Assembly: GCA_965203805.1 (NCBI GenBank)
Contig: OZ241917.1
Location: 2,240,001-2,304,000, forward strand
DNA from: Candidatus Latescibacterota bacterium
GTDB lineage: Bacteria; Latescibacterota; UBA2968; GCA-2709665
DNA: 64,000 bases
Direction: 5' to 3'
Part shown: positions 997 to 59,300 of the stretch, piece after piece
Layout: every line of letters starts with the position of its first letter
How positions within the stretch are numbered: the stretch's first letter is position 1
Notes under the pieces: generated by a model
Databases searched by the model: none
Seen by the model: only the letters and a program-made list of their open reading frames with translations
What the model was told of the DNA's origin: nothing
Program-made: the position numbers and the translations under genes

Positions 997-1856
997 TCGA
1001 AGCGGAAGCGGTCTCAGTACATATCGGCCGAAAGGCCCTGCTGAATCGCGTCAACATCCAGGTCCGGCCGGGTGAAATCGTTGCCGTCGTGGGTCCCAAC
1101 GGATCGGGGAAGACCACGCTTTTCAGGGTGTTGTGCGGCGACCTCTCGCCGTCCACGGGCGCGGTGTGGCTCGAAGGCTGGTGCCTCGACGATTGGGCCT
1201 CGACGGAACAGGCTCGCAAACGCGGGGTGCTCCCGCAGTCCGCCACCCTGGATTTCCCTTTTACGGTACTCGAGGTCGCGGTTATGGGTCGGATGCCGCA
1301 CCTGGAGGGCTCGGAGGGATCCACAGACTACGCAATTGCGCGCGCCAGTCTGGGTCTGGCGGGGGTTGGCGATCTGGAAGACAGGATTTACCCGACGCTG
1401 TCGGGAGGCGAAAAGCAGCGCGTGCAGTTCGCGCGGGTTCTCACACAGATCGGCGAACAGCCGTCTGATGGCCGGCGATACCTTCTGCTCGATGAACCCA
1501 CATCCAATCTGGATCTCGCACACCAGCACCGGATCCTCTCCACGGCGCGCAACTTCGCCCTTGAGTCAACCGGCGTATTGGCCGTGCTTCACGATCTGAA
1601 TCTGGCCGCGCAATACGCGGACCGCGTCCTCGTATTGAAAGAAGGGGAAGAACTCACTTCCGGTGAGCCGTCGGAGGTTTTCACGGAGGGCGTCATCGAA
1701 CGGGCTTTCGACGTGCGTGTGCGGGTGATTCCCCATCCCACGATGGATTGCCCGCTCATTGTACCGCTGCCCGAGACTTCCGGGAAACCGGGACCGGCCC
1801 CCATTGCCGGCGGCCTGATGACAGGGATCGGGCCCGGAAGAGCGTACGGCCACTGA
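993..1856 (+). CDS. hmuV: Heme ABC transporter ATP-binding protein
   Basis: Start reassigned to the ATG at 993 (MIEAEAV). Walker A GPNGSGKT, signature LSGGEKQRVQFARVL, Walker B LLLDEPT, and LHDLNLAAQYADR as in HmuV. Confidence 0.92.
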   Translation: MIEAEAVSVHIGRKALLNRVNIQVRPGEIVAVVGPNGSGKTTLFRVLCGDLSPSTGAVWLEGWCLDDWASTEQARKRGVLPQSATLDFPFTVLEVAVMGRMPHLEGSEGSTDYAIARASLGLAGVGDLEDRIYPTLSGGEKQRVQFARVLTQIGEQPSDGRRYLLLDEPTSNLDLAHQHRILSTARNFALESTGVLAVLHDLNLAAQYADRVLVLKEGEELTSGEPSEVFTEGVIERAFDVRVRVIPHPTMDCPLIVPLPETSGKPGPAPIAGGLMTGIGPGRAYGH

Positions 1857-1908
1857 CGCGACCCGCCGAACACCGTTTCGAAAGTCCTGAGACGGATCCG
1901 GCGATAGG

Positions 1909-4335
1909 ATGGAAAAACCAATGTCAAGCGCGAATTCCACGGGTAATTGTCGTCAGTCCAGGCCATCGGCAGCGGTCGACGGACGGGGAGGGTATCTCGC
2001 GAACCACCTTTTCCTGAAGGGATTGAAGGGGTCCGGATGGTTCGTGTTCCTGATCTGCTTCTGTAATGTCGGCGTGGCGAACGACGCTTCGGGTCGTATC
2101 GAGGGCGTGGTGCAGACCGCGGGCGGGATGCCGCTGGCAGATGTCAACGTCTCCGTTTCAGATAAGCCATTGGGAGCGGTGAGTTCCGCCACAGGGCGCT
2201 TTTCTCTGACCGGCGTCTCCGGGGGTGAACATACGGTCGTCGCGAGTCTGGTTGGTTACAGGCGTACTCGTCTGCAGGTCAATGTTGCGGCGAACGCCGT
2301 CTCCAGGGTCCGCATTGTATTGACGCCGGAGACGACCGCGCTCCCCGCGATAGTCGTCACAGGTACCAGGTCGGCGCAGAGTATAGAAGACACGCCGATC
2401 CAGACGCAGGTCATCACCAAACATGAGATTAACGGCACCGGCGTGGTGGACCTGGGAAGTCTCCTGGCGGAACAGACCGGGATTGCCGTGATCTCGGACC
2501 ACGGCACCGGCGTTCAGATGCAGGGGTTCGATCCCGATTACACGCTCATTCTGGTCGACGGCGAACCCGTTATCGGGCGCACGGCGGGGACACTCGACCT
2601 GGACCGGTTCCTGGTGAGTAATCTCGAGCAAGTCGAGATTGTCAAGGGTTCCACGTCCTCGCTTTACGGCAGCGAGGCCCTGGCAGGCGTGATCAACCTG
2701 ATTACCCGCCTGCCGGAAAAACCGTTCTCCGCGTCCATTCGACCACGCTACGGCACCTTCGGCGCTCTGAATTTCACCGGCGAACTGGAGTCCCGACAAA
2801 AGGAATTCGGGATATCGCTATTCGTGGACCGAAGCCGCAGCAGCGGCTACGATCACACGCCGGAAACGGTGTCGCCGACCGCTCCCGAATACGTCGCCTA
2901 CACGGCGAGTCCCAAAGTGGTCTACGAACCGAGCGACCGGGTTACGCTTTCGCTGTCGGCACGGGTATTCCAGGAAAGCCAGCAAAGTCCCGAAGAGATC
3001 AGGTCGCCCGGCGGAAACGTGCTCATCGAGAGGGACGCACGACTGACAGACTGGAATATCAACCCTAGAATCACCTTTCGATGGACACCCGGTCTTCGGA
3101 TAAGCGGCAAGCTCTACACCGCCAATTACCATACCCGAAGCGAGCGGACGCGCGCCGATAGCGGCGAGCCGTACGACATGGCGGCTTTCGACCAGAACTA
3201 CCGCAAAGCCGAAGTGCAGGCCCATTCACTGGTCGGAAGAACCAGCATTGTGACGCTTGGCGCGGGGACGGTGTGGGAGTCAGTAGAGGCGGACCGCATT
3301 ACCGGGGGGCGCCAATCCTCGCGCAGCGCATTCGCTTTTCTCCAGGAAGAGTGGTTGCCCGCGACATGGCTCGACCTGGTCGTCAGCGCGCGCGTGGACG
3401 CGCACAGCGACTACGCGGCAAGGGTTAGCCCGAAAGCCGCGCTCCTTATCAAGTCCCTGCCGTGGCTGCATCTTCGAGGATCCGTAGGCAGCGGCTTCAA
3501 AGCGCCCACGTTTCAGCAGCTGTACCTGGATTTCACCAATCCTTCAGTCGGCTATTCCGTACTCGGCTCTACCTACGTCCGTGACGGGATGGCGCTGATG
3601 CAGGACGAAGGCCGGATTGCCGCCGTGCTTCAGGACACCGAAACGATGGAGCAGATTCGAGCCGAGAGCGCAGTTTCTTTCAACGCGGGCATTGAAGTCG
3701 CACCGGGAGGCCGTGCAACCGCGAAAATCAGCTTCTTCCACAACAACGTGCGGGACCTCATCGAGGCCTCGCCCATCGCCCGGAAGAAGAGCGGCCAGAG
3801 CGTGTTTACGTATTTTAATCTCAACCGTGTCTTCACCCGCGGTGTGGAAAGCGAAGTCAAACTGCGCATTTCCGAAAAGGCCGGGTTGTCGGCGGGTTAC
3901 CAGTACCTGCAGACGGCAGACAGGGACGTGCTGGACAGACTCAGTGACGGCCAGGTTGTGACGGTGGATCCGGAAACCAACAAACTTCGCCGTGTCGAAA
4001 CCCCGGAATACGGAGGACTCTTCAATCGCTCGACCCACACTGCCACGCTGCGCCTTTTCTATCGGAACGAGGTGACCGGCCTCGGCGGCAGCCTGCGCGG
4101 CGTATATCGGGGTCGATACGGCTACCAGGATCGCAACCTGACCAACATCCTCGACGCGCCCGAAGAGTACGCGCCGGGCTACGGTATCTGGCACATATCG
4201 CTTTCCCAGCAGATAAAGGACTTTGCCGCAACGATTCGACTGGGTGTCCGGAACGTGTTCGACGAAAAACGGTTGGACTATGTTCCCTCTCTGCCCGGCC
4301 GCATACTCTATGTGGATCTGACCAGAGACTTCTGA
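1909..4335 (+). CDS. TonB-dependent outer-membrane receptor with an N-terminal carboxypeptidase-regulatory-like domain (likely heme/iron)
   Basis: VVTGTRS TonB-box region, plug motifs LILVDGEP and EIVKGSTSSLYGSEALAGVINLIT, GFKAP, GVRNVFD and a C-terminal Phe. Exact start uncertain. Confidence 0.9.
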   Translation: MEKPMSSANSTGNCRQSRPSAAVDGRGGYLANHLFLKGLKGSGWFVFLICFCNVGVANDASGRIEGVVQTAGGMPLADVNVSVSDKPLGAVSSATGRFSLTGVSGGEHTVVASLVGYRRTRLQVNVAANAVSRVRIVLTPETTALPAIVVTGTRSAQSIEDTPIQTQVITKHEINGTGVVDLGSLLAEQTGIAVISDHGTGVQMQGFDPDYTLILVDGEPVIGRTAGTLDLDRFLVSNLEQVEIVKGSTSSLYGSEALAGVINLITRLPEKPFSASIRPRYGTFGALNFTGELESRQKEFGISLFVDRSRSSGYDHTPETVSPTAPEYVAYTASPKVVYEPSDRVTLSLSARVFQESQQSPEEIRSPGGNVLIERDARLTDWNINPRITFRWTPGLRISGKLYTANYHTRSERTRADSGEPYDMAAFDQNYRKAEVQAHSLVGRTSIVTLGAGTVWESVEADRITGGRQSSRSAFAFLQEEWLPATWLDLVVSARVDAHSDYAARVSPKAALLIKSLPWLHLRGSVGSGFKAPTFQQLYLDFTNPSVGYSVLGSTYVRDGMALMQDEGRIAAVLQDTETMEQIRAESAVSFNAGIEVAPGGRATAKISFFHNNVRDLIEASPIARKKSGQSVFTYFNLNRVFTRGVESEVKLRISEKAGLSAGYQYLQTADRDVLDRLSDGQVVTVDPETNKLRRVETPEYGGLFNRSTHTATLRLFYRNEVTGLGGSLRGVYRGRYGYQDRNLTNILDAPEEYAPGYGIWHISLSQQIKDFAATIRLGVRNVFDEKRLDYVPSLPGRILYVDLTRDF

Positions 4336-4491
4336 GCAAACCCGGGCTATTTCCGAGCGGACGCCAAGGCGACCTGACACGTGATGTGTCGCGGAGATTA
4401 AGCCTTACACGCTTTCAACCGGAAATAGAGCCGCATCAACGAGCTTCCCTGAAACGCCTGCAACGTCAACCCCTTTTACAGCGGGAGGTAT

Positions 4492-5733
4492 ATGAAAGGA
4501 TCTCTTGTATTCAGCGCATTTCTCCTGTTCGCGCTGCCGGCGAACGTAATGAGCGAGGACGACGGGTCGGAACCCGTAATGAGAATTACGGGATACGGCG
4601 AACTCATCTACTCGCACTTCGATTACGGCCCCGACCAGAAGAGCAGCCCGTCGGGTTCGCCGCCGGACAGCCGCGCGACCATCGACGTCGCACGTCTGGC
4701 CCTCGAGCTGGAAACCCGCCTGCTTCACGGCGTAGAGCTGGAAGTCGAACTGGAAATCGAACACGGCGGAACCGGGGGCGCACTCGAGATCGAATACGAG
4801 GAATTCGGCGAATACGAAACCGAAGTGGAAAAGGGCGGTGAAGTCATCCTCGAGGAACTCTTCATTGAACGCGAGTTCAGCGACGCCTTCAACATCCGTC
4901 TTGGCCACTTCTACGTTGCCGTGGGTCTTACCACGGAGCAATACCATCCCACGGACTTTTTCGGAACCCGCCGCCCGGAGTCGGAAACCTCAGTGATTCC
5001 CGCAATATGGCACGAAACCGGCATCGAGGTCAACGGCCGCACCGATCGTCTGAGCTACCGGATCCAACTCGTCAACGGACTCGACGCAACGGGTTTCAGT
5101 TCGCAGAACTGGATTGTGGGGGGCCACCAGACGCGCTTTGAGGAGGTCCGAGCATCGAATATGGCGCTTGCGGGCCGGTTGGACTACCGCATCGCGGATG
5201 GCCTCAGCTTTGGCGTATCGGGCTATCGCGGCGACAGCGCCGACAACCGTCCGAAACCCGACATGAAAGGTGTGGATGCCAATGTGTCCATCTTCGACGT
5301 CCACGCCGTGCTGCGGTATAATCGCTTTCGCGCGCAGGGGATGTATCTGTACGGAAGTCTGCAGAACGCGGATATCGTGAGCGAGCGCAACCGGTCGCTG
5401 TCCAATAATCTGGATGTGTTGCGCACGCCCGTGGGCAGCGGCGCCTTTGCGTCTTATGTCGAGGCCGGCTGTGACATTCTGCCCACGCTCACGTCGCGGC
5501 GGGAAGATCAGCTCTATGTGTTCCTGCGATTCGGCAGCTACGACACGATGGCGAGTGTGCCGGAGGGTTTCTTTGACAATCCACGGTTCGAACGTCGAGT
5601 ATATACGCTCGGCCTCAACTACATCCTGGACAACGCGGTGGTCCTCAAGGGCGACTATTCGATGCGTCGACTGGGCGCATCGCGATTCAACGGTGAAAAT
5701 ACCGCCAGTTTCGCAGTAGGCTTTCAGTTTTAA
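4492..5733 (+). CDS. Outer-membrane beta-barrel/porin-like protein of imelysin-associated iron-uptake loci
   Basis: Signal peptide, ITGYGE, very acidic ELEIEHGGTGGALEIEYEEFGEYE segment, IPAIWHETG and C-terminal GFQF; GGAGG RBS. Confidence 0.8.
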   Translation: MKGSLVFSAFLLFALPANVMSEDDGSEPVMRITGYGELIYSHFDYGPDQKSSPSGSPPDSRATIDVARLALELETRLLHGVELEVELEIEHGGTGGALEIEYEEFGEYETEVEKGGEVILEELFIEREFSDAFNIRLGHFYVAVGLTTEQYHPTDFFGTRRPESETSVIPAIWHETGIEVNGRTDRLSYRIQLVNGLDATGFSSQNWIVGGHQTRFEEVRASNMALAGRLDYRIADGLSFGVSGYRGDSADNRPKPDMKGVDANVSIFDVHAVLRYNRFRAQGMYLYGSLQNADIVSERNRSLSNNLDVLRTPVGSGAFASYVEAGCDILPTLTSRREDQLYVFLRFGSYDTMASVPEGFFDNPRFERRVYTLGLNYILDNAVVLKGDYSMRRLGASRFNGENTASFAVGFQF

Positions 5734-5753
5734 TTCACAAGGAGGAAACACCG

Positions 5754-6830
5754 ATGAAAGTCGTTAACGTATTTTTCGGTCTCTTGCTTGCCGTTTCACT
5801 CACCGGGTGCGGCGGCGACGACGAAAACCCCGTCGCACCCGAGCCGGAACCCGATCCGCGGTTTGATTTCTCACCTATTCTTACCGACTTCGCCGACAAA
5901 ACGGTTATCCCCATCTACAAGGACCTCTCCGACAAGGCATCGGAACTCCTCGTCGCCGTAACCAATCTCAAGACCAACCCATCGCCCGCCACGCTGTCCA
6001 CCGCCCGCGCGGCCTGGGTGGCCTCGCGCCAGCCATGGGAAAGAAGCGAGGCGTTCCTGTTCGGTCCGGTTGACTTCAAGGGTTATGATCCGGCGTTGGA
6101 TTCCTGGCCCGTAAACCGCGCGGACCTGGAAGCTGTTTTGTCGGGCAGCGATCCCTTGACCAAGACATCCGTCAATAACCTCGAGAACACGCTCAAGGGA
6201 TTTCATACCATTGAATTCCTGCTCTATGACGAGGGCGGCAGCAAGACCGTAGACGACTTTACTTCGCGACAATACGATTACCTCATCGCGGCGACGGAAT
6301 TGCTCGATGAAGCTGCCACAGCGATGCATACGGACTGGAGTGCATCCGGCGGAAACTTCCGCGATCAGGTCGTCAGTGCGGGCGCGGGCAGCAACACCTA
6401 CACCACGCGGAAAGCAGCAATTCAGGAGATGATCAACGGCATGGTCGGCATTGCCGACGAAGTTGGAAACGGCAAGATTGCCGACCCCTTCAATGAACAG
6501 GACACGCGCCTGGTCGAATCGCAGTTCAGCTTTAACTCTCTTCTCGACTTCCAGAACAACATCCGCGGGATCTGGCATGTATATACCGGCGGGTACAATG
6601 TTCAGGCAGTGGGCCTGGACTATTTCGTAAGGACGAAAAACTCCTCGCTCGACACGCGCGTGCAGGATGAAATCAAGACAGCGATTGAAGAAATCGGGAA
6701 AATTTCCTTCCCGTTCCGTGACGCTCTGGCGTCCGACGCAGCACAGATCACGGCGGCCCAGCAGGCCATTGCAAAGGTGCAGGCTACCCTCGAAGGCGAC
6801 GTGCTGCGCCTGGTCAACGCGGAACCATAG
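5754..6830 (+). CDS. Imelysin-family (peptidase M75/IrpA-like) iron-regulated lipoprotein
   Basis: Lipobox LTGC, WxxSEAFLFGP, LDSWP, GxHxxE motif GFHTIE, EVGNGKI and ESQFS; AAGGAGG RBS. Confidence 0.9.
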   Translation: MKVVNVFFGLLLAVSLTGCGGDDENPVAPEPEPDPRFDFSPILTDFADKTVIPIYKDLSDKASELLVAVTNLKTNPSPATLSTARAAWVASRQPWERSEAFLFGPVDFKGYDPALDSWPVNRADLEAVLSGSDPLTKTSVNNLENTLKGFHTIEFLLYDEGGSKTVDDFTSRQYDYLIAATELLDEAATAMHTDWSASGGNFRDQVVSAGAGSNTYTTRKAAIQEMINGMVGIADEVGNGKIADPFNEQDTRLVESQFSFNSLLDFQNNIRGIWHVYTGGYNVQAVGLDYFVRTKNSSLDTRVQDEIKTAIEEIGKISFPFRDALASDAAQITAAQQAIAKVQATLEGDVLRLVNAEP

Positions 6831-6854
6831 ACCGCCGCGTCCAAACTCCGGAAC

Positions 6855-6882
6855 GCCGATAGGGTACGTTTGCCCTATCGGC
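6855..6882 (+). other. Intercistronic stem-loop between the imelysin and DHOR genes
   Basis: GCCGATAGGGTA-CGTT-TGCCCTATCGGC forms a 12-bp stem with one G-U pair and has no U-tract. Confidence 0.55.
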
Positions 6883-6932
6883 TCCGCACTCGCGTCTTTC
6901 CAACCATTTGACCGAAGCCAGGACCGTCTCTC

Positions 6933-8318
6933 GTGAAACCTGCCGGCAAAATTCGGTGTGCCATCGGCGTTTCGCTGCTCGTTTCCGCATGCGGCAGTGA
7001 AGAGACGATTTCACCCGTGCCCGATGAAACCAGACCCCTGTCCGGCGGGCAGGCGACGGTTTTCGACGCCTCCAGTCAGGCATTCGAAATGCCCATCCCG
7101 ACGCTCTCAGCCAACGAACTGGACATGTTTCTTGCGGGCGATGCCACCTTCGAACAGGTCTTCGTCACACCTCCCGCCGAAGTGAACCCTGGCGCCGGTC
7201 CCGTGTTCAGCCACACCTCGTGCGTGGGTTGTCATCTGCGGGACGGGCGGGGGCGAGGCGCATTCGGCGCAGAGCCGCCCTTCGTCGGTTCCATGCTTAT
7301 GCGCGTCAGTCTTCCCGGTCTGTCCACGCACGGCGGCCCCGCGCCTGTTCCCGGCTTTGGCGTGCAGCTCGGAGACCGCGCAAACTATGGCGTTCAGCCT
7401 GAGGCGCGTGTTCAGGTCAGCTATTTCGAAACCGCGGAAAAACTGGCCGACGGCGAAGAGGTTTACCTGAAACACCCGGTCTATCATATCGTTGAACCCT
7501 ATCGGCCGTTGCCCGAAGGGGTGCTGCTGTCGGCGCGCATGGCGCCGCCCGTATTCGGACGCGGCCTGCTGGAAGCGATATCCGAATCTGACATCCTTGC
7601 GCTCTCGGATCCCTCGGATACCGACGGAGACGGAATATCCGGGAGGCCCAATTACGTCCACAATTTCCGAACCGGTCGGACGGAACTCGGGCGCTTCGGC
7701 CTTAAAGCCAACAATCCGGACATTCTGCAGCAGGTCGCAAGCGCGTACAACGAGGACATGGGCGTTACCAGCCCGTACTTTCCCAGAGAATCCGTATGGG
7801 GTCAGCCTCAGCACGACGGCCGCGACGACGATCCGGAAATAACGCAGAAGACGTTGGACATAACGACGTTTTATATCCAGACGCTTGCCGTACCCGCACG
7901 GCGCAACTGGGATGATCCTCAGGTCATTCGCGGAGAAATCCTCTTTGAATCGACGGGTTGCGCAGGCTGCCATACCACGACGTTCCGAACGGGCAGCCAT
8001 GAAATTCCGTCACTATCCGGCCAGGTCATCCATCCCTATACTGATTTGCTGCTGCACGACATGGGCGAAGCGCTTGAAGACAATCGCCCGGACTTCGAAG
8101 CCACGGGGCGCGAGTGGAAAACGCCAGCGCTCTGGGGCCTTGGGCTCACGGAAACCGTCAACGGTTCGCCACCGGGATTCCTGCACGACGGCCGGGCGGC
8201 AACCCTGCTCGAAGCCATTATGTTCCACGGTGGTGAAGCGGAGCGTTCGCGTGAAGCCGTACGCAGATTATCGACTGAAAACAGGGAGGCGTTGCTCTCC
8301 TTCTTACGATCGCTGTAG
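6933..8318 (+). CDS. Di-heme oxidoreductase (DHOR) family c-type cytochrome lipoprotein
   Basis: Lipobox VSAC, two CxxCH motifs (CVGCH, CAGCH), GRFGLKA, PYTDLLLHDMG, WKTPALWGLG and FLHDGRA. Confidence 0.9.
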   Translation: MKPAGKIRCAIGVSLLVSACGSEETISPVPDETRPLSGGQATVFDASSQAFEMPIPTLSANELDMFLAGDATFEQVFVTPPAEVNPGAGPVFSHTSCVGCHLRDGRGRGAFGAEPPFVGSMLMRVSLPGLSTHGGPAPVPGFGVQLGDRANYGVQPEARVQVSYFETAEKLADGEEVYLKHPVYHIVEPYRPLPEGVLLSARMAPPVFGRGLLEAISESDILALSDPSDTDGDGISGRPNYVHNFRTGRTELGRFGLKANNPDILQQVASAYNEDMGVTSPYFPRESVWGQPQHDGRDDDPEITQKTLDITTFYIQTLAVPARRNWDDPQVIRGEILFESTGCAGCHTTTFRTGSHEIPSLSGQVIHPYTDLLLHDMGEALEDNRPDFEATGREWKTPALWGLGLTETVNGSPPGFLHDGRAATLLEAIMFHGGEAERSREAVRRLSTENREALLSFLRSL

Positions 8319-8389
8319 AACGCCCGATTGGCGCGATTAAAATCGGATGGACGAATCATCCTCGGCACCCCGCCCGACGCAATGCGCCG

Positions 8390-8415
8390 AGTTGATCGGA
8401 AGATTCCGATCAACT
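8390..8415. promoter_or_regulatory. Perfect 12-bp inverted repeat upstream of the HmuY gene (operator or hairpin)
   Basis: AGTTGATCGGAA-GA-TTCCGATCAACT. Confidence 0.4.
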
Positions 8416-8543
8416 TCCACAGACCACAGTGTTCTGTCCCAGGAATACCTCACGATTCTTGTGCGGATTCATACTGCCTCAGCGGAAGAACTCTGGGAAC
8501 TCATCCCCGGGACTGAACACTCAGATGGGAGGATGTCATGTAT

Positions 8544-9815
8544 ATGCGACGTGTGTTTACCGCCTGCATTATCGTCCTTGCAGCGGCGCCGCTTCTCGCG
8601 CAGATGTCTTACGATCCGGATTTCGACGGAAGCGGCGAAGTCGACTTTTCCGATTTTGTCATGTTCGCCCGGGCATTCGGGACAACGGACCCCCAATTCG
8701 ATCTCGACGGAAACGGCAGCGTCGACTTCCCGGACTTTGTCCTTTTCGCCCGGGCGTTCGGAGGCGCGGCCGAGGCCTTAACAACCCCTATAGAGTCGTT
8801 GACGGAGGTCGATGTCCGAGACCTCCCTGCCGATCCGGACCGGCAGGATCATTTCACCTTTTACAGCTTGCGGGACAGCGCCATTGTCTCACGGGCCGAT
8901 TCCAACTCCACGAAGTGGGACCTCGCGTTCAAGTCGACGACGATCCTGATCAACGGCGGCAACAGCGGACCGGGCGAGGGCGGGGCGATCGTGCTGACGG
9001 AAACGGACTACGATACGCTGTCGATGGCGCCCGACTCCGAATACGCGGTCGACCAGGAGGGGCAAGCAGCCATCGGGCCCGCGTGGTACACGTACACCGG
9101 CCCGCCCAACCATCACATCCTGATCAACCCGAACGTGGTGCTGGTCATTCGCACGGCCGACGGACGATACGCCAAGCTCCAATTCACGAGTTATTATAAA
9201 GGCGGCGAGGCGGTTCCTTCATCGCGGGAAGCGCGCGGGCGTTTTCTGAATTTCACCTACACGTACCAGCCCGATGGCTCGCGGTCGTTTGAGGGACCGT
9301 CCATGGAGATCATGACGCTCACCGAGGTCATGGCCCGCGACGTCGCGGCCGACACAGGCAACGTGGGCGCCTTCACGTTCTACAGCCTGCGGGACAGCGC
9401 CATTGTCTCACGCGCGGATTCCAATTCCACGAAATGGGACCTCGCGTTCAGATCCACGACCGTGCTGACCAACAGCGGAACGAGCGGACCGGGAGAGGGC
9501 GGGGCGATCGTGCTGACGGCGACGGACTACGATACGCTGTCGATGGCGCCGGACGTGGCGTATATGATCGATCAGGAGGGTCAACCCGCCATCTCAAGAG
9601 CGTGGTATACGTACACGGGGCCGCCCGGCCACCAGATCCTGATGAATCCGGGCGTCGTACTGGTGATTCGCACGGCGGACGGACGATATGCAAAGCTCAA
9701 GTTCACGAGTTACTATCAGGGCGGCGAGGCAGTTCCTTCCTCCCTTGAGTCAAGATCGCGCTTCTACCATTTCACGTACACGTTCCAACCGGACGGATCG
9801 CGCTCGTTTCGTTGA
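8544..9815 (+). CDS. hmuY: Secreted protein: signal peptide, dockerin-like paired EF-hand domain and two tandem HmuY heme-binding domains
   Basis: N-terminal DFDGSGEVDFSDFVMFARAFG...DLDGNGSVDFPDFVLFARAFG. Each repeat has KWDLAF, NxGxSGPGEGG, WYTYTGPPxH and VIRTADGRYAKLxFTSYY (HmuY-family motifs). Start is ATG 8538 or 8544, after GGGAGG. Confidence 0.85.
   Translation: MRRVFTACIIVLAAAPLLAQMSYDPDFDGSGEVDFSDFVMFARAFGTTDPQFDLDGNGSVDFPDFVLFARAFGGAAEALTTPIESLTEVDVRDLPADPDRQDHFTFYSLRDSAIVSRADSNSTKWDLAFKSTTILINGGNSGPGEGGAIVLTETDYDTLSMAPDSEYAVDQEGQAAIGPAWYTYTGPPNHHILINPNVVLVIRTADGRYAKLQFTSYYKGGEAVPSSREARGRFLNFTYTYQPDGSRSFEGPSMEIMTLTEVMARDVAADTGNVGAFTFYSLRDSAIVSRADSNSTKWDLAFRSTTVLTNSGTSGPGEGGAIVLTATDYDTLSMAPDVAYMIDQEGQPAISRAWYTYTGPPGHQILMNPGVVLVIRTADGRYAKLKFTSYYQGGEAVPSSLESRSRFYHFTYTFQPDGSRSFR
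8799..9809 (+). repeat. Intragenic tandem duplication of the HmuY domain (period 519 nt, 173 aa)
   Basis: Copy 1 at ~8799-9290 and copy 2 at ~9318-9809 are colinear, with near-identical DNA stretches such as cgggacagcgccattgtctcacg and gactacgatacgctgtcgatggcgcc. Confidence 0.9.
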
Positions 9816-9841
9816 GTGACAAAACACACAGGAGGCCCGGT

Positions 9842-10174
9842 ATGATTGCTGTTGCCAATCGCATCTACATAACTCCGGAATACGCCGAACAATTCGAAGA
9901 TCGTTTTCGCAACCGCGCGCATCTCGTGGACGGCATGCCCGGATTCATTTCCAACAAGGTATTGAGACCCACGAAGAGCGATCAGCCTTACGTGGTCCTG
10001 ACTTTCTGGGAATCACGGGAGGATTTCAAGAACTGGGTGAATTCCGAGGAATTTCAGAAGGGGCACGCCAGATCCGGAACGCTGCCGAAGAAAGCGTTCT
10101 CTGACGCCAGTCACCTGGAGATTCACGAGGTCTTTCTGGATACCGAACGGAAAGCCGCGGAAACGGTTTCATGA
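9842..10174 (+). CDS. IsdG/HmoB-like heme-degrading monooxygenase (ABM family)
   Basis: ATG 9842 after GGAGG. MIAVAN (Asn), DGMPGF and WESREDFKNWVNSEEFQKGH give the Asn/Trp/His triad of IsdG-type enzymes; last gene of the heme operon. Confidence 0.82.
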   Translation: MIAVANRIYITPEYAEQFEDRFRNRAHLVDGMPGFISNKVLRPTKSDQPYVVLTFWESREDFKNWVNSEEFQKGHARSGTLPKKAFSDASHLEIHEVFLDTERKAAETVS

Positions 10175-10255
10175 GATATACGTGCGCGAATTGAACGAAG
10201 GTCAATAAACGAACCGTCACCCAGCGCACGAAGGTGGATGATTCCTGCAAGACAG

Positions 10256-10297
10256 ACAAGGGGCTACGAGCCATTACTCGTAACCCCTTGTTTATTA
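10256..10297. terminator. Stem-loop between the convergent heme operon and tRNA region (likely bidirectional terminator)
   Basis: ACAAGGGGCTACGAG-CCATTA-CTCGTAACCCCTTGT followed by TTATT on the plus strand. Confidence 0.65.
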
Positions 10298-10338
10298 TGG
10301 TCGGGGAGGCGGGATTCGAACCCGCGACCCCCTGCTCC
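10298..10338 (-). repeat. 41-bp direct repeat of the tRNA-Pro 3' half (att-like site)
   Basis: tggtcggggaggcgggattcgaacccgcgaccccctgctcc is identical to 10545-10585, and identity ends in the anticodon loop. Confidence 0.92.
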
Positions 10339-10358
10339 GTCTTTGCTATCCCAAATAG

Positions 10359-10390
10359 GAATCGCCCCCGGTTCCAACCGGGGGCGATTC
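10359..10390. repeat. Perfect 15-bp inverted repeat between the att copy and the tRNA
   Basis: GAATCGCCCCCGGTT-CC-AACCGGGGGCGATTC. Confidence 0.8.
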
Positions 10391-10544
10391 TCACCACCTA
10401 GGCACATTCGCGCTTTCAGTGGTTCGATCAAATTTAGCGTTAATTGACGATCATGTCAAGGCAAAAGGGTTGCAATTGTGACGTTTGTCTCAACCCGATA
10501 GAACAAGGGACTGCGCCAATTTGAAATAACCCCTCAGTTTTCTA

Positions 10545-10621
10545 TGGTCGGGGAGGCGGGATTCGAACCCGCGACCCCCTGCTCCCAAAGCAGGTGCTCT
10601 GCCGGACTGAGCCACTCCCCG
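10545..10621 (-). tRNA. tRNA-Pro (anticodon TGG)
   Basis: Reverse complement CGGGGAGTGGCTCAGTCCGGCAGAGCACCTGCTTTGGGAGCAGGGGGTCGCGGGTTCGAATCCCGCCTCCCCGACCA: 77 nt cloverleaf, CCTGC/GCAGG anticodon stem, GTTCGAA T-loop and encoded CCA. Confidence 0.97.
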
Positions 10622-10918
10622 TCCAATCGTGCCAGGTCAAAATATCTGTTCGGAATATCCACAAAACCACTGTTTCGAGCAAGAAAAAAGGTGGAATAGA
10701 TGGACAGGTTTTTGCCATCGACGACAAACCTGGAGGCACCCCCGACGGACAAAGACAGGTCAACCGCAATCCTCATCCAATCTGTAACGCAAGGTCCGCA
10801 GCGCCCCCGTTTCCAGGCTCCTTGAATTTCACTTGCCGCTTCCGGCACGTCAAGGTAATTTGACGTGCGATTAACCTCCGATTCGCATCTCATACCCTGC
10901 CCAGCGGTCTTTTCCCCA

Positions 10919-12052
10919 ATGCCCGACAAACCGGTACTCATCATCGACGGCCATCTGGACATGGCCTTCAACGCGCTCTTCTACCGGCGCGACCTCACGC
11001 AACCGGTGCACGTGCTGCGCGAACGGGAGGACGTTGTCCGCGCGGGCCTTTCGACACACAAGGATTCCCTCGAAAGACGCGCAGGACTCCAGGACAAACG
11101 CTACACCGTCACCGTTACGCTGCCTGAGATGCGCAAGGGTCACGTGGGCATCATGCTCTCGACGATCATGGCCCGCGTCCAGGCCCCGTCCATCGACTCC
11201 CACAACTCCGTCCGCGCCCAATCGGTCGCCTACGCCAGGGGCCAGAGCCACCTCCACTACTACAACGCCCTCGCACGCCGGGGCGAAATCACGTTCATCA
11301 GGAACGCCGGCGACCTGGACGTATGTGTCTCATCCTGGGAAAATCCGACGGACACCACGCCGATCGGCCTGATCCTCACCGCGGAGAGCGCCGACCCCAT
11401 CCTGGGTCCGGACCAGGTCGCAGAATGGTGGGACGCCGGCCTGCGCTCGGTCTCTCTCACCCACTTCGGCGCCAATACGTACGGCCACGGAACAGGCACC
11501 GTCGGCGGACTCTACCCCCCCGCCTACCCTCTGATGGACGCCTTCAAGGACGCGGGTATGGTGATCGACCTCACCCATGCGTCGGACCTCAGCTTCTGGC
11601 AGATCCTGGACTACTGGGAAGGCCCGGTCCACGCCAGCCACTGCAACTGCCGCGCACTGGTTCCCGGACAGCGTCACCTCAGCGACGATATGATCCGCGC
11701 CATCGTGGAACGCGGCGGCGTCATCGGCATGGTCTTTGCCGAACAGATGCTCAGCCCCGCCTGGAACTGGGACGATCCGTCGACGCACTACGCCACTGCA
11801 ACCCGGCCGATGAATGCCGTTGTCGAACACGTCGACCACGTCTGCCAGTTGACGGGCAACAGCAACCACGTGGCGATCGGCACGGACCTGGACGGAGGAT
11901 TCGGGCTGGAACTCTCACCCACGGACTACAACACGATCGTCGATCTCCAGCGTTTTCCCGACATCCTGGAAACCCATGGGTACAACGCAGAAGCCATCGA
12001 CAACATCTGTCACGGGAACCTTATCAGGTTCTTCAAGGAAGCGTGGACCTGA
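10919..12052 (+). CDS. Membrane dipeptidase family (peptidase M19) metallohydrolase, paralog 1
   Basis: IDGHLD, ESADPI, IDLTHAS, ASHCNCRALVPGQRHLSDD and IGTDLDGGFG; start placed at ATG 10919. Confidence 0.87.
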   Translation: MPDKPVLIIDGHLDMAFNALFYRRDLTQPVHVLREREDVVRAGLSTHKDSLERRAGLQDKRYTVTVTLPEMRKGHVGIMLSTIMARVQAPSIDSHNSVRAQSVAYARGQSHLHYYNALARRGEITFIRNAGDLDVCVSSWENPTDTTPIGLILTAESADPILGPDQVAEWWDAGLRSVSLTHFGANTYGHGTGTVGGLYPPAYPLMDAFKDAGMVIDLTHASDLSFWQILDYWEGPVHASHCNCRALVPGQRHLSDDMIRAIVERGGVIGMVFAEQMLSPAWNWDDPSTHYATATRPMNAVVEHVDHVCQLTGNSNHVAIGTDLDGGFGLELSPTDYNTIVDLQRFPDILETHGYNAEAIDNICHGNLIRFFKEAWT

Positions 12053-12119
12053 TGCCGGTTCTCTCACCGGGCGCCCGCCTATTCCGGGCGGCGGGCTGAT
12101 TACATCAAAAAGGGTTGAA

Positions 12120-13202
12120 ATGTCGAACCGTCCGTACCTCATCGCGGACAGCCACCTGGACCTCGGGTTCAGCGCCATTCAGGTCAATCGGGACCTCACG
12201 CAGCCGGCCGCGACCGTTCGCGTCCACGACGCCGAGCCCGTGATGCGCAGCTTCGGAAGCTGCACCGTCACCTTCCCGGAACTTCGCCGGGGCAACGTGG
12301 GCATCGTCTTCGGCACCATGATGTCCCGTACCGACCCCAACGACCGCTGGACACGCACGGGCATGTACTGCCAGGACCAGTGCCACGGCGTGGGCCGGGG
12401 CCACCTGGCCTATTACCAGGCGATGGAGCGCGAAGGCGTGATTCGCTTCATCCGCAATTCGCGGGACCTGGACGAAACGGTCGCCGCGTGGGAGAACCCG
12501 GCCCCCGATACGCCCATCGGGCTGGTGGTGGCCATGGAAAGCGCCGACCCCATCCTGGACCCGTCGCAGGTTCCGGAATGGTACGATCTCGGGCTCCGAA
12601 TCGTGAGTATCTCCCACTACGGCGTCAGTTCCTACTGTCACGGAACGGGCACCGAGGGCGGCCTGCTGGAACGCGGCAAACCCCTGCTCGCCGCCCTGAA
12701 GGAAGCGGGGATCATCGTCGACCTGACCCACACGACGGACCAGGCCTTCTGGGAAATCCTGGACGTCTACGACGGTCCCGTGGCCGCATCCCATCACAAC
12801 TGCCGCGCGCTCACCCCCGGACAGCGCCAGCTCACCGACGACATGATCGGCGCCATCATCCAACGTGGCGGCGTGATTGGCGCCGCATTCGATGCCTGGA
12901 TGCTGGATCCGGAATGGAACCGTGACATCCCCTGCTGGGCGCAGAACACGAGAGCCACCCTCGAGACCGTCGCCAATCACATCGACCACGTGTGCCAACT
13001 CGCCGGCAACGCACGGCACGCCGGCATCGGAACCGACCTGGACGGCGGATTCGGGCAGGAACAGTCCCCGCGCGACCTCAACACCATCGCCGACCTTCAG
13101 AACCTGGTCGGCATCCTCCAGCGCCGTGGCTACAGGGAACCCGACGTTCGCAACATCCTCTCCGGCAACTGGGTCCGATTTCTGAAGGAAGTGTGGGAGT
13201 AG
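12120..13202 (+). CDS. Membrane dipeptidase family (peptidase M19) metallohydrolase, paralog 2
   Basis: ADSHLD, MESADPI, VDLTHT, ASHHNCRALTPGQRQLTDD and IGTDLDGGFG; start ATG 12120. Confidence 0.87.
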   Translation: MSNRPYLIADSHLDLGFSAIQVNRDLTQPAATVRVHDAEPVMRSFGSCTVTFPELRRGNVGIVFGTMMSRTDPNDRWTRTGMYCQDQCHGVGRGHLAYYQAMEREGVIRFIRNSRDLDETVAAWENPAPDTPIGLVVAMESADPILDPSQVPEWYDLGLRIVSISHYGVSSYCHGTGTEGGLLERGKPLLAALKEAGIIVDLTHTTDQAFWEILDVYDGPVAASHHNCRALTPGQRQLTDDMIGAIIQRGGVIGAAFDAWMLDPEWNRDIPCWAQNTRATLETVANHIDHVCQLAGNARHAGIGTDLDGGFGQEQSPRDLNTIADLQNLVGILQRRGYREPDVRNILSGNWVRFLKEVWE

Positions 13203-14057: not shown

Positions 14058-15527
14058 ATGCCCTCCAGACCTAATCTGCTTCTCATTACAACCGACCAGC
14101 AGCGCGGCGACTGCCTTGGATGCGACGGCCATCCGGTACTGGAAACCCCTTATCTGGATGAGCTGGCGGAGGGCGGGGCGCGCTTCAACCACGCCTACAC
14201 CTCCGTCCCTTCCTGCACGCCCGCGCGCGCGGGTATCCTCACGGGGATGGACCAGTGGAACCACGGCCGGCTTACGATGACGGGCGCCGACCCGCTCGAG
14301 TATCCGGCCACGCTGCCTGCCGAACTCGCTCACGCGGGTTACCATACCCAGGCCGTGGGCAAAATGCACTTCCACCCCCAGCGCAGACTCTACGGCTTTC
14401 ACCACATGGTCCTGGACGAGAGCGGGCGGCGAATGGGCAACTTCGTCAGCGACTACCACATTTTCTTCGAAAAACACAAAGAGGGCGAATACGGTTACCG
14501 GGACCACAGCGTGGACTGGAATTCATGGATGGCCCGCCCGTCCCATTTGCCGGAACACCTGCACCCCACCCATTGGACGGCATCCGAGGGTATCCGGTTC
14601 CTCGAAAACCGGGACCCGACCAAACCCTTTTTTCTCTGGTTGTCGTTCGCCCGCCCCCATTCCCCGTACGACGCACCGCAGACGTACTACGACATGTACA
14701 TTGACAATCCCGATGTGCCCAAAGCGGCCGTGGGAGCGTGGTCGGCCCGGTACGACCGGCAAATCGCCGACGTAAACGCCCCGCGCACCCGCCGCACCGA
14801 TGCCGAAACCCATCGCGCACGCGCGGCGTATTACGGCAACATTACCTTCATCGACCATCAAATCGGCCGCGTCCTGCACGAACTGCGGAGACGCGACCCA
14901 GCGGCAGCGGCAAACACCCTGATCCTGTTCACGTCGGACCACGGCGACATGATGGGCGATCATCACCACTGGCGAAAAACCTACGCGTATGAAGGCTCCG
15001 CCCGAGTCCCCTTCATCCTCAAATACCCGGACACCTGGGAAATGCCCCGCAACAGAACGCTGGCTCAACCAGTAGAACTAAGAGACATCATGCCCACGTT
15101 CCTCGATGCCGCAGACGTCGCCGTCCCCGAATCCGTAGACGGCGGCAGCCTGTTGAATCTCTCTCGAGGCGACAAAGAAGGCTGGCGGGCGTTCGTTCAG
15201 GGCGAGCACACCACCTGTTACGACAGAGAACACGGTATGCAGTACGTTACCGACGGCCGGGAAAAGTACATCTGGTTCCACCACACCGGGGCCGAGCAAT
15301 TCTTCGACCTCGAGGCCGACCCACTGGAGTGCAACGACCTCGCGGCCGTTGCCGATCGACAATCACGCATCGACGTCTGGCGCGGACGCCTGGCCGAAGT
15401 CAACGAAACGCGCGGCGACCCGCGGGGCCGGAACGGCGAACTCGTGCCCCAGCCCGGCGGCGCGCTGTCGCTCTCGCCCAACTACGAGAAATGGAAACAG
15501 CGCGCGAAAGCGCTGGAACGCGGGTAG
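14058..15527 (+). CDS. Sulfatase (formylglycine-dependent, arylsulfatase/choline-sulfatase-like), no signal peptide
   Basis: RPNLLLITTDQQRGD, catalytic CxPxR motif SCTPARAGILTG, GKMH, PHSPYD and SDHGDMMGDH. Confidence 0.92.
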   Translation: MPSRPNLLLITTDQQRGDCLGCDGHPVLETPYLDELAEGGARFNHAYTSVPSCTPARAGILTGMDQWNHGRLTMTGADPLEYPATLPAELAHAGYHTQAVGKMHFHPQRRLYGFHHMVLDESGRRMGNFVSDYHIFFEKHKEGEYGYRDHSVDWNSWMARPSHLPEHLHPTHWTASEGIRFLENRDPTKPFFLWLSFARPHSPYDAPQTYYDMYIDNPDVPKAAVGAWSARYDRQIADVNAPRTRRTDAETHRARAAYYGNITFIDHQIGRVLHELRRRDPAAAANTLILFTSDHGDMMGDHHHWRKTYAYEGSARVPFILKYPDTWEMPRNRTLAQPVELRDIMPTFLDAADVAVPESVDGGSLLNLSRGDKEGWRAFVQGEHTTCYDREHGMQYVTDGREKYIWFHHTGAEQFFDLEADPLECNDLAAVADRQSRIDVWRGRLAEVNETRGDPRGRNGELVPQPGGALSLSPNYEKWKQRAKALERG

Positions 15528-56374: not shown

Positions 56375-59300
56375 TCATTTCAACAGCATCATTTTCCTGA
56401 CCGCCGTGAACCTGCCGCCACCCGCCACAAGACGGACGCAGTAGATCCCGCTGGACACTTCCCTCCCCGAGTCGTCCCTCCCGTCCCAGGTAGCCTGGTA
56501 ATAGCCGGCCTGCCGGTTGCCTTCGGCCAGCACGCGGACCCGCTGTCCGAGAAGATTGTAGACGATCAGCGAGATATTGCCGGCCTCGGGTAGCTGGTAA
56601 GCGATCTGACACTCGATATTGAACGGGTTCGGGAAACTCTGGTGCAGGGCGAATTCAGCGGGTTCGGCCGGCGAATCCCGCATGAAGCGACCGCCGATCT
56701 TCCATCCCGTCACCTCTCCCCGGTCCGTCCCGACGACCACGCCGTCCCCGGTTCTCAGGATGTGGGTCGGCCGACCCGTCGTCTTGCCCACACCGCCGAC
56801 CTCTCCTGATCCGTTCAGTACGATGACGCTGCCGTCTTCGCAGCCGGCTGCGACCCAGGCGGCTTCGTTGGCGCGCAGGAACGCCAGCACGGTGGGCGGG
56901 CTGTGCAGCCGGCGGGTCCAGACCCGCGCGCACCTTGCATCCAGCGCGACCACGAATCCCTTGGACGTCGCCGCGATAATCTCCTTCTTCCCGTCTCCGT
57001 CCAGGTCCCCGATGTCCAGGTCTCGCATGTTCTGCGCGGGGATCCGATTCCCCGGGCCGAAGTTCGCGCTATAGAGGGCGACGCCGTTCTCATCCCACAC
57101 GGTCACACGGTTCCACGTGCCGTTGATCTCGCTGATTACCTCTTTCGTCCCGTCTGCGTCCAGGTCTTCGTTGAAGATGTGCTTCCGGCTCATCGAGGCC
57201 CATCCGCCGATGTACGTATGGCCTGCCGGGACCCCGGCGAACCGGCCCCGGGTCACGTTCGTCGACCGACTGTTCACTACGGACAGCGAGTGCGAATCCG
57301 TGGGCTGCCGCGCGATCAGAAGATCGGCGCCGCCCCTGGGGCTCTCGATGAGTGCGAACCGGGTCCCGGGCCCCCAGAACACCGGCAGCCTCTCCTCCAG
57401 CTCTCCCCTTCCGTTCAGGATCTCCAGCGTACACGCGCTTCCCACAAATGCCTGGCTCTGCCCGTTTCGAAAGATCCCCGTGTGCAATCCGTGGATTCCT
57501 TCGTGACCCGGCGCGGTCTTGAACCAGTAGGTCTTCCCGGCCTGAAAGACCGCCGGATGCATTTCCGACACGAACGTCCACCTTCGTCTTCCCTCCAGGT
57601 CGAACGCGATCACCTGTTCGTCTCCGCACCCGGCCAGCAGCAACTGGAACGTATCCCACCAGCGCAGAACCCGGACCGGACCGTCGGTCCCGAAGAACCG
57701 ACCCTCCCGGCCGTCCGAAGTGAGCAGATGCACCCCTTTTTCCGCGCCGACGCCGACCCAGGTCCTGCCTTCGGCATCGAATGTAATCATGTCCGTGACC
57801 GCTGCGCCGATCTGCGCCGTGAGAGACATGGGCGCGGGCGGACCGTCCGGCACGGTGGGAGACGCGGGAGTATCCGCCTCGCGTCGACGCGCCGCCAGAG
57901 CCTGCGCCAACAACTCCGCCAGGCGGTCGACCGTCCCGGAGAGCACATCCGGATCGGGCGCCGCTCCCGTAAATTCATGCCGGCCTTCCGGCACGAGAAA
58001 AACGAAGCCGCTGTCGGAATCGGCGCCGGTCGCCAGCGGATGGCCGTTCATCCGGACCTCCGACGGTTCAGCGAACGCCGCGCGAACTCGGGTCTCCTCC
58101 GGTGTCGAGAGCATGGCGGTTCTCGAGCGAAAGTCCCAGTCCAGATCCACCGGCGAGGACGCTGAGAACAGGACCGCCTCCAGGCTCGCGGTCTTCAAGC
58201 CCGTACCGAAGAGATGATCGGCGGCCAGCAGAACGACGTCGCCCTGAATGCCGGAGTATTCACCGGAAACGGCAATCGCCGGTTCGGGAAGTCCCAGTAT
58301 CGCCGCCTGCGTATCCAGCCGCAGGCAGGCGACCGGCGCTCCCGCCGTGCCGTTCCCGGCAATCAGCGAAAAGAACGCGCGCTCCTCCCCGGACGACACG
58401 GCGCCTGTCCACACCAGGGATGCCGTTCTGCCGTTGATCATCATCTCCACGGGGTCCGAGGCACGGATGCCAAACCGGGTTCCGCCGGTCTGGATGTGCG
58501 GCGTACCGCCCTCTGAAGACGAATGCCATCGCCCTGGCGCCGTCCATTCTGTCCGCACCTCGAGGTTCGCGCTGTTCACCCGGAAACTCAGTTGGTCGAC
58601 AAACAACGCATACCTTCCCACGCGTTGCACGAGGGCGCGGCGCCAATTGCAGAACGGCGCGTCGGGCACTTCGGCGACGGCAACGGCCGTCCGGCCCAGC
58701 ACGTCCCGATAACGAAGCGCCGCGTCCATCGGGCTGTGCGCCTCCACCAGTCCGTCGGCCCCCGTCAGCACCTGATTTCCGTACCCTTCGAGTACGGTCT
58801 CCCCGTCCAGGCGCAGTTCCAGAACAGCAAACGCGTGGTAGGGATTCCGGGAGGCTCCGTTCAATCCGTCGATCAGGATGAAGTCCCCCGTCGCGCCGGT
58901 TGTGCTTCGAAAGCTCCCGAATTGGAACGAGTCCGAAATCGGCAGCCCGCTCGCCCGCCGTATCCACAGCGGCTCCGGCACCTGCAGGATGCTCCACTTT
59001 TGAGTAAGATCCGTCGGCTGGACCGGAACCATGTCGGACCCGGGCCAGAAGGACTGGCCCAGCCGGAACTTATTCAGATCCACTCCGGTCCGGCGCGCGT
59101 ATTCCAGGTATCGCCCGTCGCCCGTGAGATACGCGGCTTTGTGGAGATATCCGATGGAGGCGTAGCGAAGGGCCCAGTCGGGCTCGCGGCCGGAGATCAG
59201 CATCTCCTGCCCGCGCAGCAGCGTTTCCAGTACGCCGTTCCGCAGCGCGGCCCGTTCCCCCGAAATCAGCATATACGTGAAGATGGGGGCAATGCCGGTA

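Follow-up and report, generated by a model that had tools for sequence, protein, structure and literature searches.

To our knowledge, all HmuY-family hemophore-like proteins characterised so far are lipoproteins from host-associated Bacteroidota. Here we analyse a gene whose product carries two HmuY domains behind a signal peptide and a dockerin; it occupies 8538..9815 on the forward strand (425 residues) of a 64,000-nucleotide stretch of the chromosome of a marine Candidatus Latescibacterota bacterium (contig OZ241917.1, positions 2,240,001 to 2,304,000; hereafter the window, in whose coordinates we give positions unless the chromosome is named). The genome is a single contig of 5.87 Mb and is 99.8% complete. 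On balance, and with modest confidence, we favour the reading that this protein is a receptor partner for heme or a porphyrin and that cohesins at the surface, not a lipid, hold it in place. The described systems with which it is best compared are HmuY-HmuR of Porphyromonas gingivalis and its homologues (Tfo, PinO/PinA, Bvu and BfrA-C), which the locus resembles in Pfam family, in an adjoining TonB-dependent receptor and in an iron or heme context. HmuY of P. gingivalis is lipid-anchored on the outer membrane (extract of PMC6200708), whereas here a dockerin stands in place of the lipid anchor and there are two HmuY domains against one. The phylum is also another, the receptor gene comes first, and the gene downstream of HmuY encodes an IsdG-like oxygenase, where the extract of PMC12106395 gives hmuSTUV for P. 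gingivalis. In its working only, the locus also recalls the HasA-type hemophores, which capture heme outside the cell and feed a TonB-dependent receptor; HasA has an unrelated fold, takes another secretion route and is released, whereas the HmuY protein here carries a docking module (extract of PMC6200708).

The module itself shares the duplicated Ca-binding loop-helix fold of the clostridial type I and type II dockerins (2y3n_B, 4u3s_B, 3kcp_A and 2ccl_B), with TM-scores of up to 0.87. It has Asp at position 12 of the loop and near-identical halves, which we take to be hallmarks of dockerins and of their dual binding mode. Its linker is six residues shorter than that of 2y3n_B, and its Ca loop is followed by F-x-D-F, whereas clostridial dockerins carry a Ser-Thr pair after the loop. 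Clostridial scaffolds are anchored by SLH domains or sortase, whereas the anchor here is a type IX secretion system (T9SS) tail; unlike the clostridial cellulosome, the system belongs to a diderm organism and is not a cellulosome. Another parallel is 'Ca. Stygibacter' of the Cloacimonadota, for which the extract of PMC8542988 presents an inferred scaffoldin of cohesins, anchored by a C-terminal domain (CTD), together with dockerin enzymes. Going by that extract, both organisms belong to candidate phyla of the FCB group, both have dockerin proteins with signal peptides and non-cellulolytic cargo that includes S8 peptidases, and both have a cohesin protein whose conserved CTD would attach it to the surface of its own cell. 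The same extract gives 'Ca. Stygibacter' one scaffoldin of 3,755 residues with tandem cohesins and carbohydrate-binding modules, whereas here there are several mostly single-cohesin proteins of ~280-360 residues; the dockerins here are N- or C-terminal, and to the cargo described in it are added a heme-capture protein, WD40 and leucine-rich-repeat (LRR) proteins and FGE-sulfatase paralogues. In the literature searched, subscription journals excepted, we found neither the combination of dockerin and HmuY nor Latescibacteria together with dockerin and cohesin.

The N-terminal module had been described in the first-pass annotation of this DNA as a paired EF-hand, dockerin-like unit, with the choice between a dockerin and a generic EF-hand listed there as a check. 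Residues 26-75 consist of two near-identical segments, each a Ca-binding loop followed by a helix. In Pfam, the isolated module reaches 32 bits against EF-hand_1, above the cut-off of that model, and 19.9-20.7 bits against Dockerin_1, under the cut-off of 22.9; its NCBIfam dockerin_GC score is under the cut-off as well. When, however, the 54 full-length modules of this kind in the same genome were turned into a profile and run against PDB sequences, solved dockerins took the first three places, namely 2y3n_B (53 bits, E 2.8e-13, positions 3-60), 4wi0_B (46.9 bits) and 4u3s_B (45 bits), all aligned over the full length, whereas calmodulin-type proteins reached 31-37 bits with part of the module aligned only. 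Of these 54 modules, 43 match Dockerin_1 at E<=0.01. An AlphaFold2 (AF2) model of the dockerin, made from the 54-module alignment, has a predicted local-distance difference test score (pLDDT) of 95.5 and two helices, at 14-23 and 41-50, both of which are preceded by a loop of 12 residues; alignment and model thus agree on two tandem segments of Ca-binding loop and helix with no preceding E-helix, which is the F-hand arrangement. When this model was compared with the PDB by Foldseek, ranks 1-14 were all dockerins (TMq 0.57-0.87), the best being 2y3n_B (TM 0.87, root-mean-square deviation (rmsd) 2.0 A over 54 columns), whereas calmodulin-type and EF-hand proteins lay at TMq ~0.3 with rmsd above 10 A. 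The module of the HmuY protein is the short-linker form, six residues shorter than most copies in the genome. Judged by these profile and fold predictions it is a dockerin and not a generic EF-hand pair, and the description in the first-pass annotation holds in spite of the Dockerin_1 score.

The dockerin is a genome-wide tag and not peculiar to the HmuY protein. Searching the genome with a model of the module yields 62 dockerin open reading frames (ORFs), with the module C-terminal in ~35, N-terminal in ~24 and internal in 3; a genome scan with Pfam Dockerin_1 gives 54 matches at E<=1, among which 13 single modules are above the cut-off, and three further modules exceed it only after summing with same-frame neighbours. 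The cargo includes many WD40 propellers and LRR proteins and many ORFs with no Pfam family, as well as six FGE-sulfatase paralogues (five in tandem), one GH5, three heparinase-like proteins (lyases), two subtilases, one matrixin, and FG-GAP/ASPIC, NHL, Big_2, Cache and PD40 proteins. The GH5, the heparinase-like lyases, the subtilases and the matrixin would be enzymes acting on extracellular polymers. A cellulosome is ruled out, there being only one GH5 and three heparinase-like proteins among the 62 tagged ORFs and at most two cohesin-like domains per protein, and no multi-cohesin scaffoldin with a carbohydrate-binding module was found in the genome. The five tandem FGE-sulfatase paralogues lie at chromosome positions 3943912-3949731, each with an N-terminal signal peptide and a short-linker dockerin, and their N-termini share 54-57% identity with the HmuY protein over its residues 8-77, which suggests a shuffled cassette of signal peptide and dockerin. 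Two dockerin-rich clusters, at chromosome positions 3308731-3341919 and 3412662-3432489, look like cohesin-dockerin islands; they also contain a 1797-residue dockerin-cohesin-CTD protein and a 1052-residue protein in which a cohesin-like domain is combined with a dockerin, cadherin, fn3 and LRR.

Candidate partners for the tag are encoded in the same genome. The Pfam Cohesin model (PF00963, cut-off 24.1 bits) identifies the 1797-residue ORF (38.6 bits) and a 360-residue ORF (26.4 bits) in a scan of proteins, and the same two at 45.3 and 28.6 bits in a scan of the whole genome; a wider model, built from five hand-picked domains, detects eight domains of the cohesin or cohesin-like kind, spread over seven ORFs with at most two per protein. 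Cohesin-like domains are present in proteins of 794, 967, 1052 and 1080 residues. Three of the cohesin proteins end in a T9SS CTD above the TIGR04183 cut-off, so that a search for cohesin proteins, which the first-pass annotation had put forward as a check, finds them present and, in three cases, with a surface-sorting tail. The short cohesin-CTD family occurs in 31/31 genomes of the order, usually in several copies, and Pfam Cohesin matches 17 of its 19 aligned members at E<=0.01. Cohesins and dockerins also co-occur across the phylum. We searched 101 of its genomes, each at least 80% complete, and found a cohesin domain in 67 and the dockerin profile in 89; cohesin was present in 47/51 genomes with at least 20 dockerin matches, in 20/38 with 1-19 matches and in 0/12 with none, a pattern and not a statistical test, since dockerin counts per genome reach a ceiling near 63 and related genomes are not independent. 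We also note two proteins that have both kinds of domain: one of 1080 residues (chromosome 4163421-4166660), whose N-terminus resembles a metalloprotease (HExxH) and which also has WD40, a pair of cohesin-like domains and a dockerin, and one of 794 residues (chromosome 3834482-3836863), which combines a single cohesin-like domain with a dockerin and LRR. To judge by their domains, such proteins could be adaptors or could self-associate.

These components suggest how the protein may work. Sec export and cleavage of the signal peptide would expose the Ca2+-binding dockerin as the mature N-terminus of a non-lipidated protein, and the dockerin would plug into a cohesin on the cell surface, in place of a lipid anchor; the candidate cohesins, in the proteins of 360, 281 and 1797 residues, would themselves be sorted and anchored via the type IX CTD. 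Outside the cell, the HmuY domains would then capture their ligand, heme or a related porphyrin, and hand it over to the TonB-dependent receptor encoded upstream and, after import, the IsdG/HmoB-like oxygenase would open the ring and free the iron. The same tag would serve ~60 other secreted proteins of the genome.

The first-pass annotation began the gene at 8544; we prefer the ATG at 8538, 6 nucleotides ahead, on account of the spacing of the GGAGG before it and of its column, which is common to 18/18 aligned orthologues. By eye, the N-terminus runs from MYMRR through a hydrophobic core to LLA|Q, and ALA/LLA-Q is kept ahead of the dockerin in orthologues. The characterised members of the family have a lipoprotein anchor, whereas inspection here finds a site of the signal peptidase I (SPase I) type followed directly by the dockerin, in agreement with the non-lipoprotein signal peptide that had been annotated. 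The sole Cys of the signal peptide, Cys10, stands where the hydrophobic core begins and outside a lipobox, and several orthologues do not have it; lipidation at Cys10 is ruled out because this residue precedes the hydrophobic core and is not conserved. The reading frame is intact, with 63-90% identity in orthologues P0002-P0012 and 51% in a more distant double form, P0014.

Homologues of the HmuY domains elsewhere are tethered in other ways. We surveyed the best 120 of 139 homologues; six match via the dockerin only, and the other 114 were classified by a crude motif script, which misses some lipoboxes, into 27 with a dockerin, at least 35 with a lipobox and 6 with a T9SS tail, while ~30 have an N-terminal hydrophobic segment with no Cys that looks uncleaved. 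Because these homologues are held by a lipobox, a T9SS tail or a hydrophobic segment, it is reasonable to read the dockerin as one anchor exchanged for another. To this extent we agree with the first-pass annotation, which saw a docking tag that had replaced the lipid anchor; the dockerin is nevertheless no hemophore-specific invention, as the 62 tagged ORFs attest. In a large group of single-domain HmuY homologues (P0083-P0120), some of them named Gemmatimonas or Gemmatimonadota, SLRRPEPP-like motifs come after a hydrophobic segment at the N-terminus, no Cys is present there, and a CPGA...PGC pair is conserved; these features speak for a disulfide-bonded subfamily that is membrane-anchored and possibly periplasmic.

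Unlikely in our judgement, but deserving to be weighed with care, is the possibility that the protein is periplasmic or freely released. The module would then be a Ca2+-dependent unit of folding or stability, or would bind a partner other than a cohesin, and HmuY would act with no tether, as a periplasmic heme chaperone behind the receptor or a soluble hemophore. Several observations favour this or weigh against display on surface cohesins. No secretin (PF00263) was found in this near-complete, single-contig diderm genome, hence no classical type II route, and a comparison of coordinates leaves 61 of the 62 dockerin ORFs, the HmuY gene included, with no T9SS CTD; taken together, these two findings leave the Sec-exported dockerin proteins with no evident route to the surface. 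The T9SS is only partly evident: SprA is above the cut-off (488 bits, 621 bits summed), a PorV-like ORF has 103 bits against a cut-off of 250 and a PorU-like ORF 213+69 bits against 420, and a search of the genome for GldM gave no match, although the model was also silent in every control genome. A profile of the cohesin-CTD family found FlgD only among PDB sequences, via the CTD, and no solved cohesin, so that the domains are cohesins on the word of Pfam. The module of the HmuY protein is under the Dockerin_1 cut-off and over that of EF-hand_1; the uncleaved-looking N-terminal segment would put ~30 of the 114 classified homologues, many of them distant, in the periplasm; and the gene is accessory, being found in full in 10/31 genomes of the order (5 double forms, all of this genus, and 5 single). 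We made use in neither direction of a complex prediction with residues 22-80 of the HmuY protein, the cohesin (residues 115-272) of the 360-residue protein and two Ca, which scored 0.08. Against a periplasmic or released protein stand the fold and profile results, which say dockerin and not generic EF-hand pair, the presence, conservation and co-distribution with dockerins of the cohesins, the other tagged cargo, which includes enzymes for extracellular polymers, and the fact that characterised HmuY proteins work outside the outer membrane (extract of PMC6200708). For these reasons we retain the reading of a protein held on surface cohesins.

A further proposal would turn the export question around. 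It is possible, although we consider it doubtful, that in this order the cohesin-dockerin pair is the main route of surface display and perhaps of export itself: the short cohesin-CTD proteins would bind their cargo by its dockerin while in the periplasm, take it along piggy-back as they pass the SprA translocon, and then keep it attached at the surface. The basis for this proposal is the number of Sec-exported dockerin proteins (62) set against the 13 ORFs of the genome above the TIGR04183 cut-off, which include the three cohesin-CTD proteins, together with the missing secretin and the multi-copy cohesin-CTD family in all 31 genomes. We note that the window itself contains one TIGR04183 sorting domain, of 32.3 bits, at 56405-56635 on the reverse strand, at the end of a 1442-residue ORF.

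The two HmuY repeats reported by the first-pass annotation are confirmed at the level of sequence. Pfam HmuY (PF14064, cut-off 27 bits) scores 111.4 bits in two stretches; in the genome scan the two domains have 54.8 and 48.0 bits, and this is the only HmuY gene that the scan finds. The repeats are 77% identical to each other. A profile of 29 HmuY domains matches six solved structures, 8b6a (112 bits), 3h8t (98), 8b61 (68), 3u22 (49), 6eu8 (43) and 4gbs (35), and phmmer aligns domain 2, over residues 270-423, with 8b6a at E 2.8e-14. Because the AF2 model of the whole protein, made from an 18-row alignment, was too poor for a fold search (mean pLDDT 56.9), it is sequence profiles only that identify these domains as HmuY.

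The ligand is a separate question. Heme or a related porphyrin is what we infer it to be; a doubtful alternative is that the HmuY domains bind something else, such as a metal-free porphyrin, a corrinoid or another planar molecule, and that the operon is a more general tetrapyrrole or iron cluster. HmuY of P. gingivalis binds heme through His134 and His166 (extract of PMC6200708). Here the loop that bears His134 is absent or ~29 residues shorter, the position of His166 aligns to an insertion beside YTYT-G (Thr/Gly), and neither of these axial-ligand positions, which are His or Met in homologues, has its counterpart. The receptor encoded upstream is matched equally by heme and B12 models, its best NCBIfam scores being 132 bits for a heme/hemoglobin receptor subfamily and 130 bits for a B12 receptor, far below both cut-offs; and the neighbouring imelysin and DHOR genes speak of iron uptake and not of heme in particular. 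All of this tells against heme. Within the family, ligation is by His-His, His-Met, Met-Met or no axial ligand, and some members bind via the ring with no coordination of iron (extract of PMC12106395), which is in line with the alternative; because the family tolerates varied or absent axial ligands, the loss of these residues weakens the heme reading but leaves binding possible. What argues for heme, on the other side, is the homologue of IsdG/HmoB-type oxygenases translationally coupled downstream in 11/11 loci, and two features conserved in the clade that could, from their conservation, serve as heme ligands: a nearly invariant His at residues 192/364, a few residues further downstream than the position of His166, and a WYxY motif invariant in 29/29 aligned HmuY domains.

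That oxygenase gene, whose product has the ABM fold, overlaps the HmuY stop with its start. Its protein is above the cut-off of Pfam ABM, scores 57.9 bits against NCBIfam HmuQ (cut-off 130) and matches the solved HmoB, MhuD, IsdI and IsdG at E values from 1e-16 to 2e-4, with aligned Asn, Trp and His that are presumably the catalytic triad of IsdG-type heme degraders; the gene is thus a candidate for an IsdG/HmoB/MhuD-like heme-degrading monooxygenase. The receptor upstream, which is likely the outer-membrane importer of the ligand, and this heme-oxygenase-like gene are in keeping with the setting in a heme uptake operon that had been proposed for the HmuY gene. We compared 26 related loci, 11 of Latescibacterota type and 15 from other phyla. 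The order of receptor, HmuY and ABM gene is kept in 11/11 of the former. In the latter, a TonB-dependent receptor lies just upstream of HmuY in 14/15 loci, the fifteenth beginning at the HmuY gene, and an ABM gene lies beside HmuY in 0/15. The genes for the 413-residue protein, the imelysin and the DHOR protein form an iron cassette that travels together in related loci; it stands between receptor and HmuY, as in the window, in 3/11 Latescibacterota-type loci, and in the others it is upstream or out of range. The 413-residue protein, which has no Pfam or NCBIfam match, is possibly an outer-membrane beta-barrel.

With respect to regulation, a scan of 1500-10700 for sigma-70 promoters and terminators gave nothing above shuffles near the gene; Fur boxes were not part of this search. 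An inverted repeat of short length, CGATT-AA-AATCG, is found at 8330-8350, right after the DHOR stop in the 219-nucleotide spacer before the HmuY gene. A tRNA-Pro gene (10545-10621, reverse strand) separates the heme operon from two tandem M19 membrane-dipeptidase paralogues (10865-13202, forward strand), which are followed by an ORF of 247 residues that looks like a multi-pass membrane protein and by a sulfatase (14058-15527). The coordinates of the features are collected in Table 1.

Table 1. Features of the HmuY locus, of its candidate cohesin partners and of a further dockerin protein in the window.
Feature	Coordinates	Strand	Description and basis
TonB-dependent receptor	1909..4335	+	N-terminal CarboxypepD_reg domain; Pfam Plug, TonB_dep_Rec_b-barrel, CarbopepD_reg_2
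413-residue secreted protein	4492..5733	+	Signal-peptide-like N-terminus; C-terminal ...GFQF
Imelysin (Peptidase_M75) lipoprotein	5754..6830	+	EfeO-like iron-uptake component; Pfam 222 bits; lipobox LTGC
Di-haem oxidoreductase	6933..8318	+	DHOR / DUF1111-type, cytochrome c peroxidase-like; Pfam DHOR 352 bits
Shine-Dalgarno-like GGAGG	8528..8532	+	5 nucleotides before ATG 8538; read from sequence
Signal peptide, residues 1-22	8538..8603	+	SPase I type, no lipobox; inspection
Dockerin module, residues 26-75	8613..8762	+	Two segments of Ca-binding loop and helix, 6-residue linker; profile, AF2, Foldseek
HmuY domain 1, ~residues 89-250	8802..9287	+	Pfam HmuY; profile match to six solved HmuY-family structures
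HmuY domain 2, ~residues 262-425, plus stop codon	9321..9815	+	Pfam HmuY; phmmer to 8b6a
ABM-fold gene	9812..10174	+	Start overlapping HmuY stop; Pfam ABM 80.7 bits
Matrixin (M10) dockerin protein, 852 residues	26056..28611	-	Matrixin, CarboxypepD_reg-like, lactonase-type beta-propeller, C-terminal dockerin
Cohesin-CTD protein, 360 residues			Signal peptide, cohesin, CTD
Cohesin-CTD protein, 281 residues			Paralogue of the 360-residue protein
Cohesin-CTD protein, 1797 residues			Dockerin-like module, cohesin, CTD

The relatives of the HmuY protein are labelled Candidatus Latescibacterota, with one exception labelled Gemmatimonadota. Of 80 kept loci, just 11 match the protein from its N-terminus onward, and because of this all dockerin-bearing forms are of Latescibacterota type. 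A survey of the architecture, which the first-pass annotation had listed among its checks, thus finds dockerin-HmuY proteins in relatives, in the ten genomes of the order that have the gene. The same annotation had set the double hemophore against the single-domain lipoproteins of the Bacteroidota. Two domains are indeed present, but tandem HmuY domains, two or three in number, are frequent in other groups among the homologues, and doubling seems to have arisen more than once in this lineage. In a FastTree phylogeny of the separated domains (MAFFT alignment, no support values), the first and second domains of this genus form sister clades; for three other proteins the tree is suggestive of duplications that took place separately, or of gene conversion.

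Sequences from other samples also cover the locus. Long DNA contigs from one sponge-metagenome run and one coral-metagenome run cover the operon, with ~55 differences over 7.5-8.4 kb. Contigs from an RNA library of the coral sample lie on 26/30 bins, including 8409-8961, with 4/30 bins uncovered and cover thin at 8928-9521; since such contigs show neither transcript ends nor levels, and DNA carry-over is possible, they give a weak hint that the gene is expressed. The idea that assembly duplicated a single domain into the tandem repeat, or that the ORF is decaying and unexpressed, is already contradicted and highly improbable: a short-read DNA contig of one run does break at 9302/9344, exactly between the repeats, which shows that the repeat is hard to assemble, but the repeats are just 77% identical, double forms occur in five genomes of the genus that include other closed chromosomes, both repeats are covered by an 11.4-kb contig from another run (55 differences), orthologues conserve the intact frame, and RNA-library contigs lie on the gene.

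Lastly, we consider what a protein of this kind would mean. The HmuY capture domain appears here in a phylum without cultures, where the anchoring system into which it is plugged is a different and modular one. The non-cellulosomal cohesin-dockerin systems of FCB candidate phyla gain a defined and easily assayed cargo, heme binding being seen as a colour change, and a concrete set of candidate cohesin partners is named. The sponge and coral contigs lead us to think that heme capture may bear on life inside an animal host. The locus also raises the question of how ~60 tagged proteins get across the outer membrane in a cell that has type IX parts and no detectable secretin. If cohesin-CTD proteins do carry dockerin cargo piggy-back, the double HmuY protein would be a hemophore whose plug serves for its export as well as for its anchoring, and such hitch-hiking would be a mode not described for type IX secretion.

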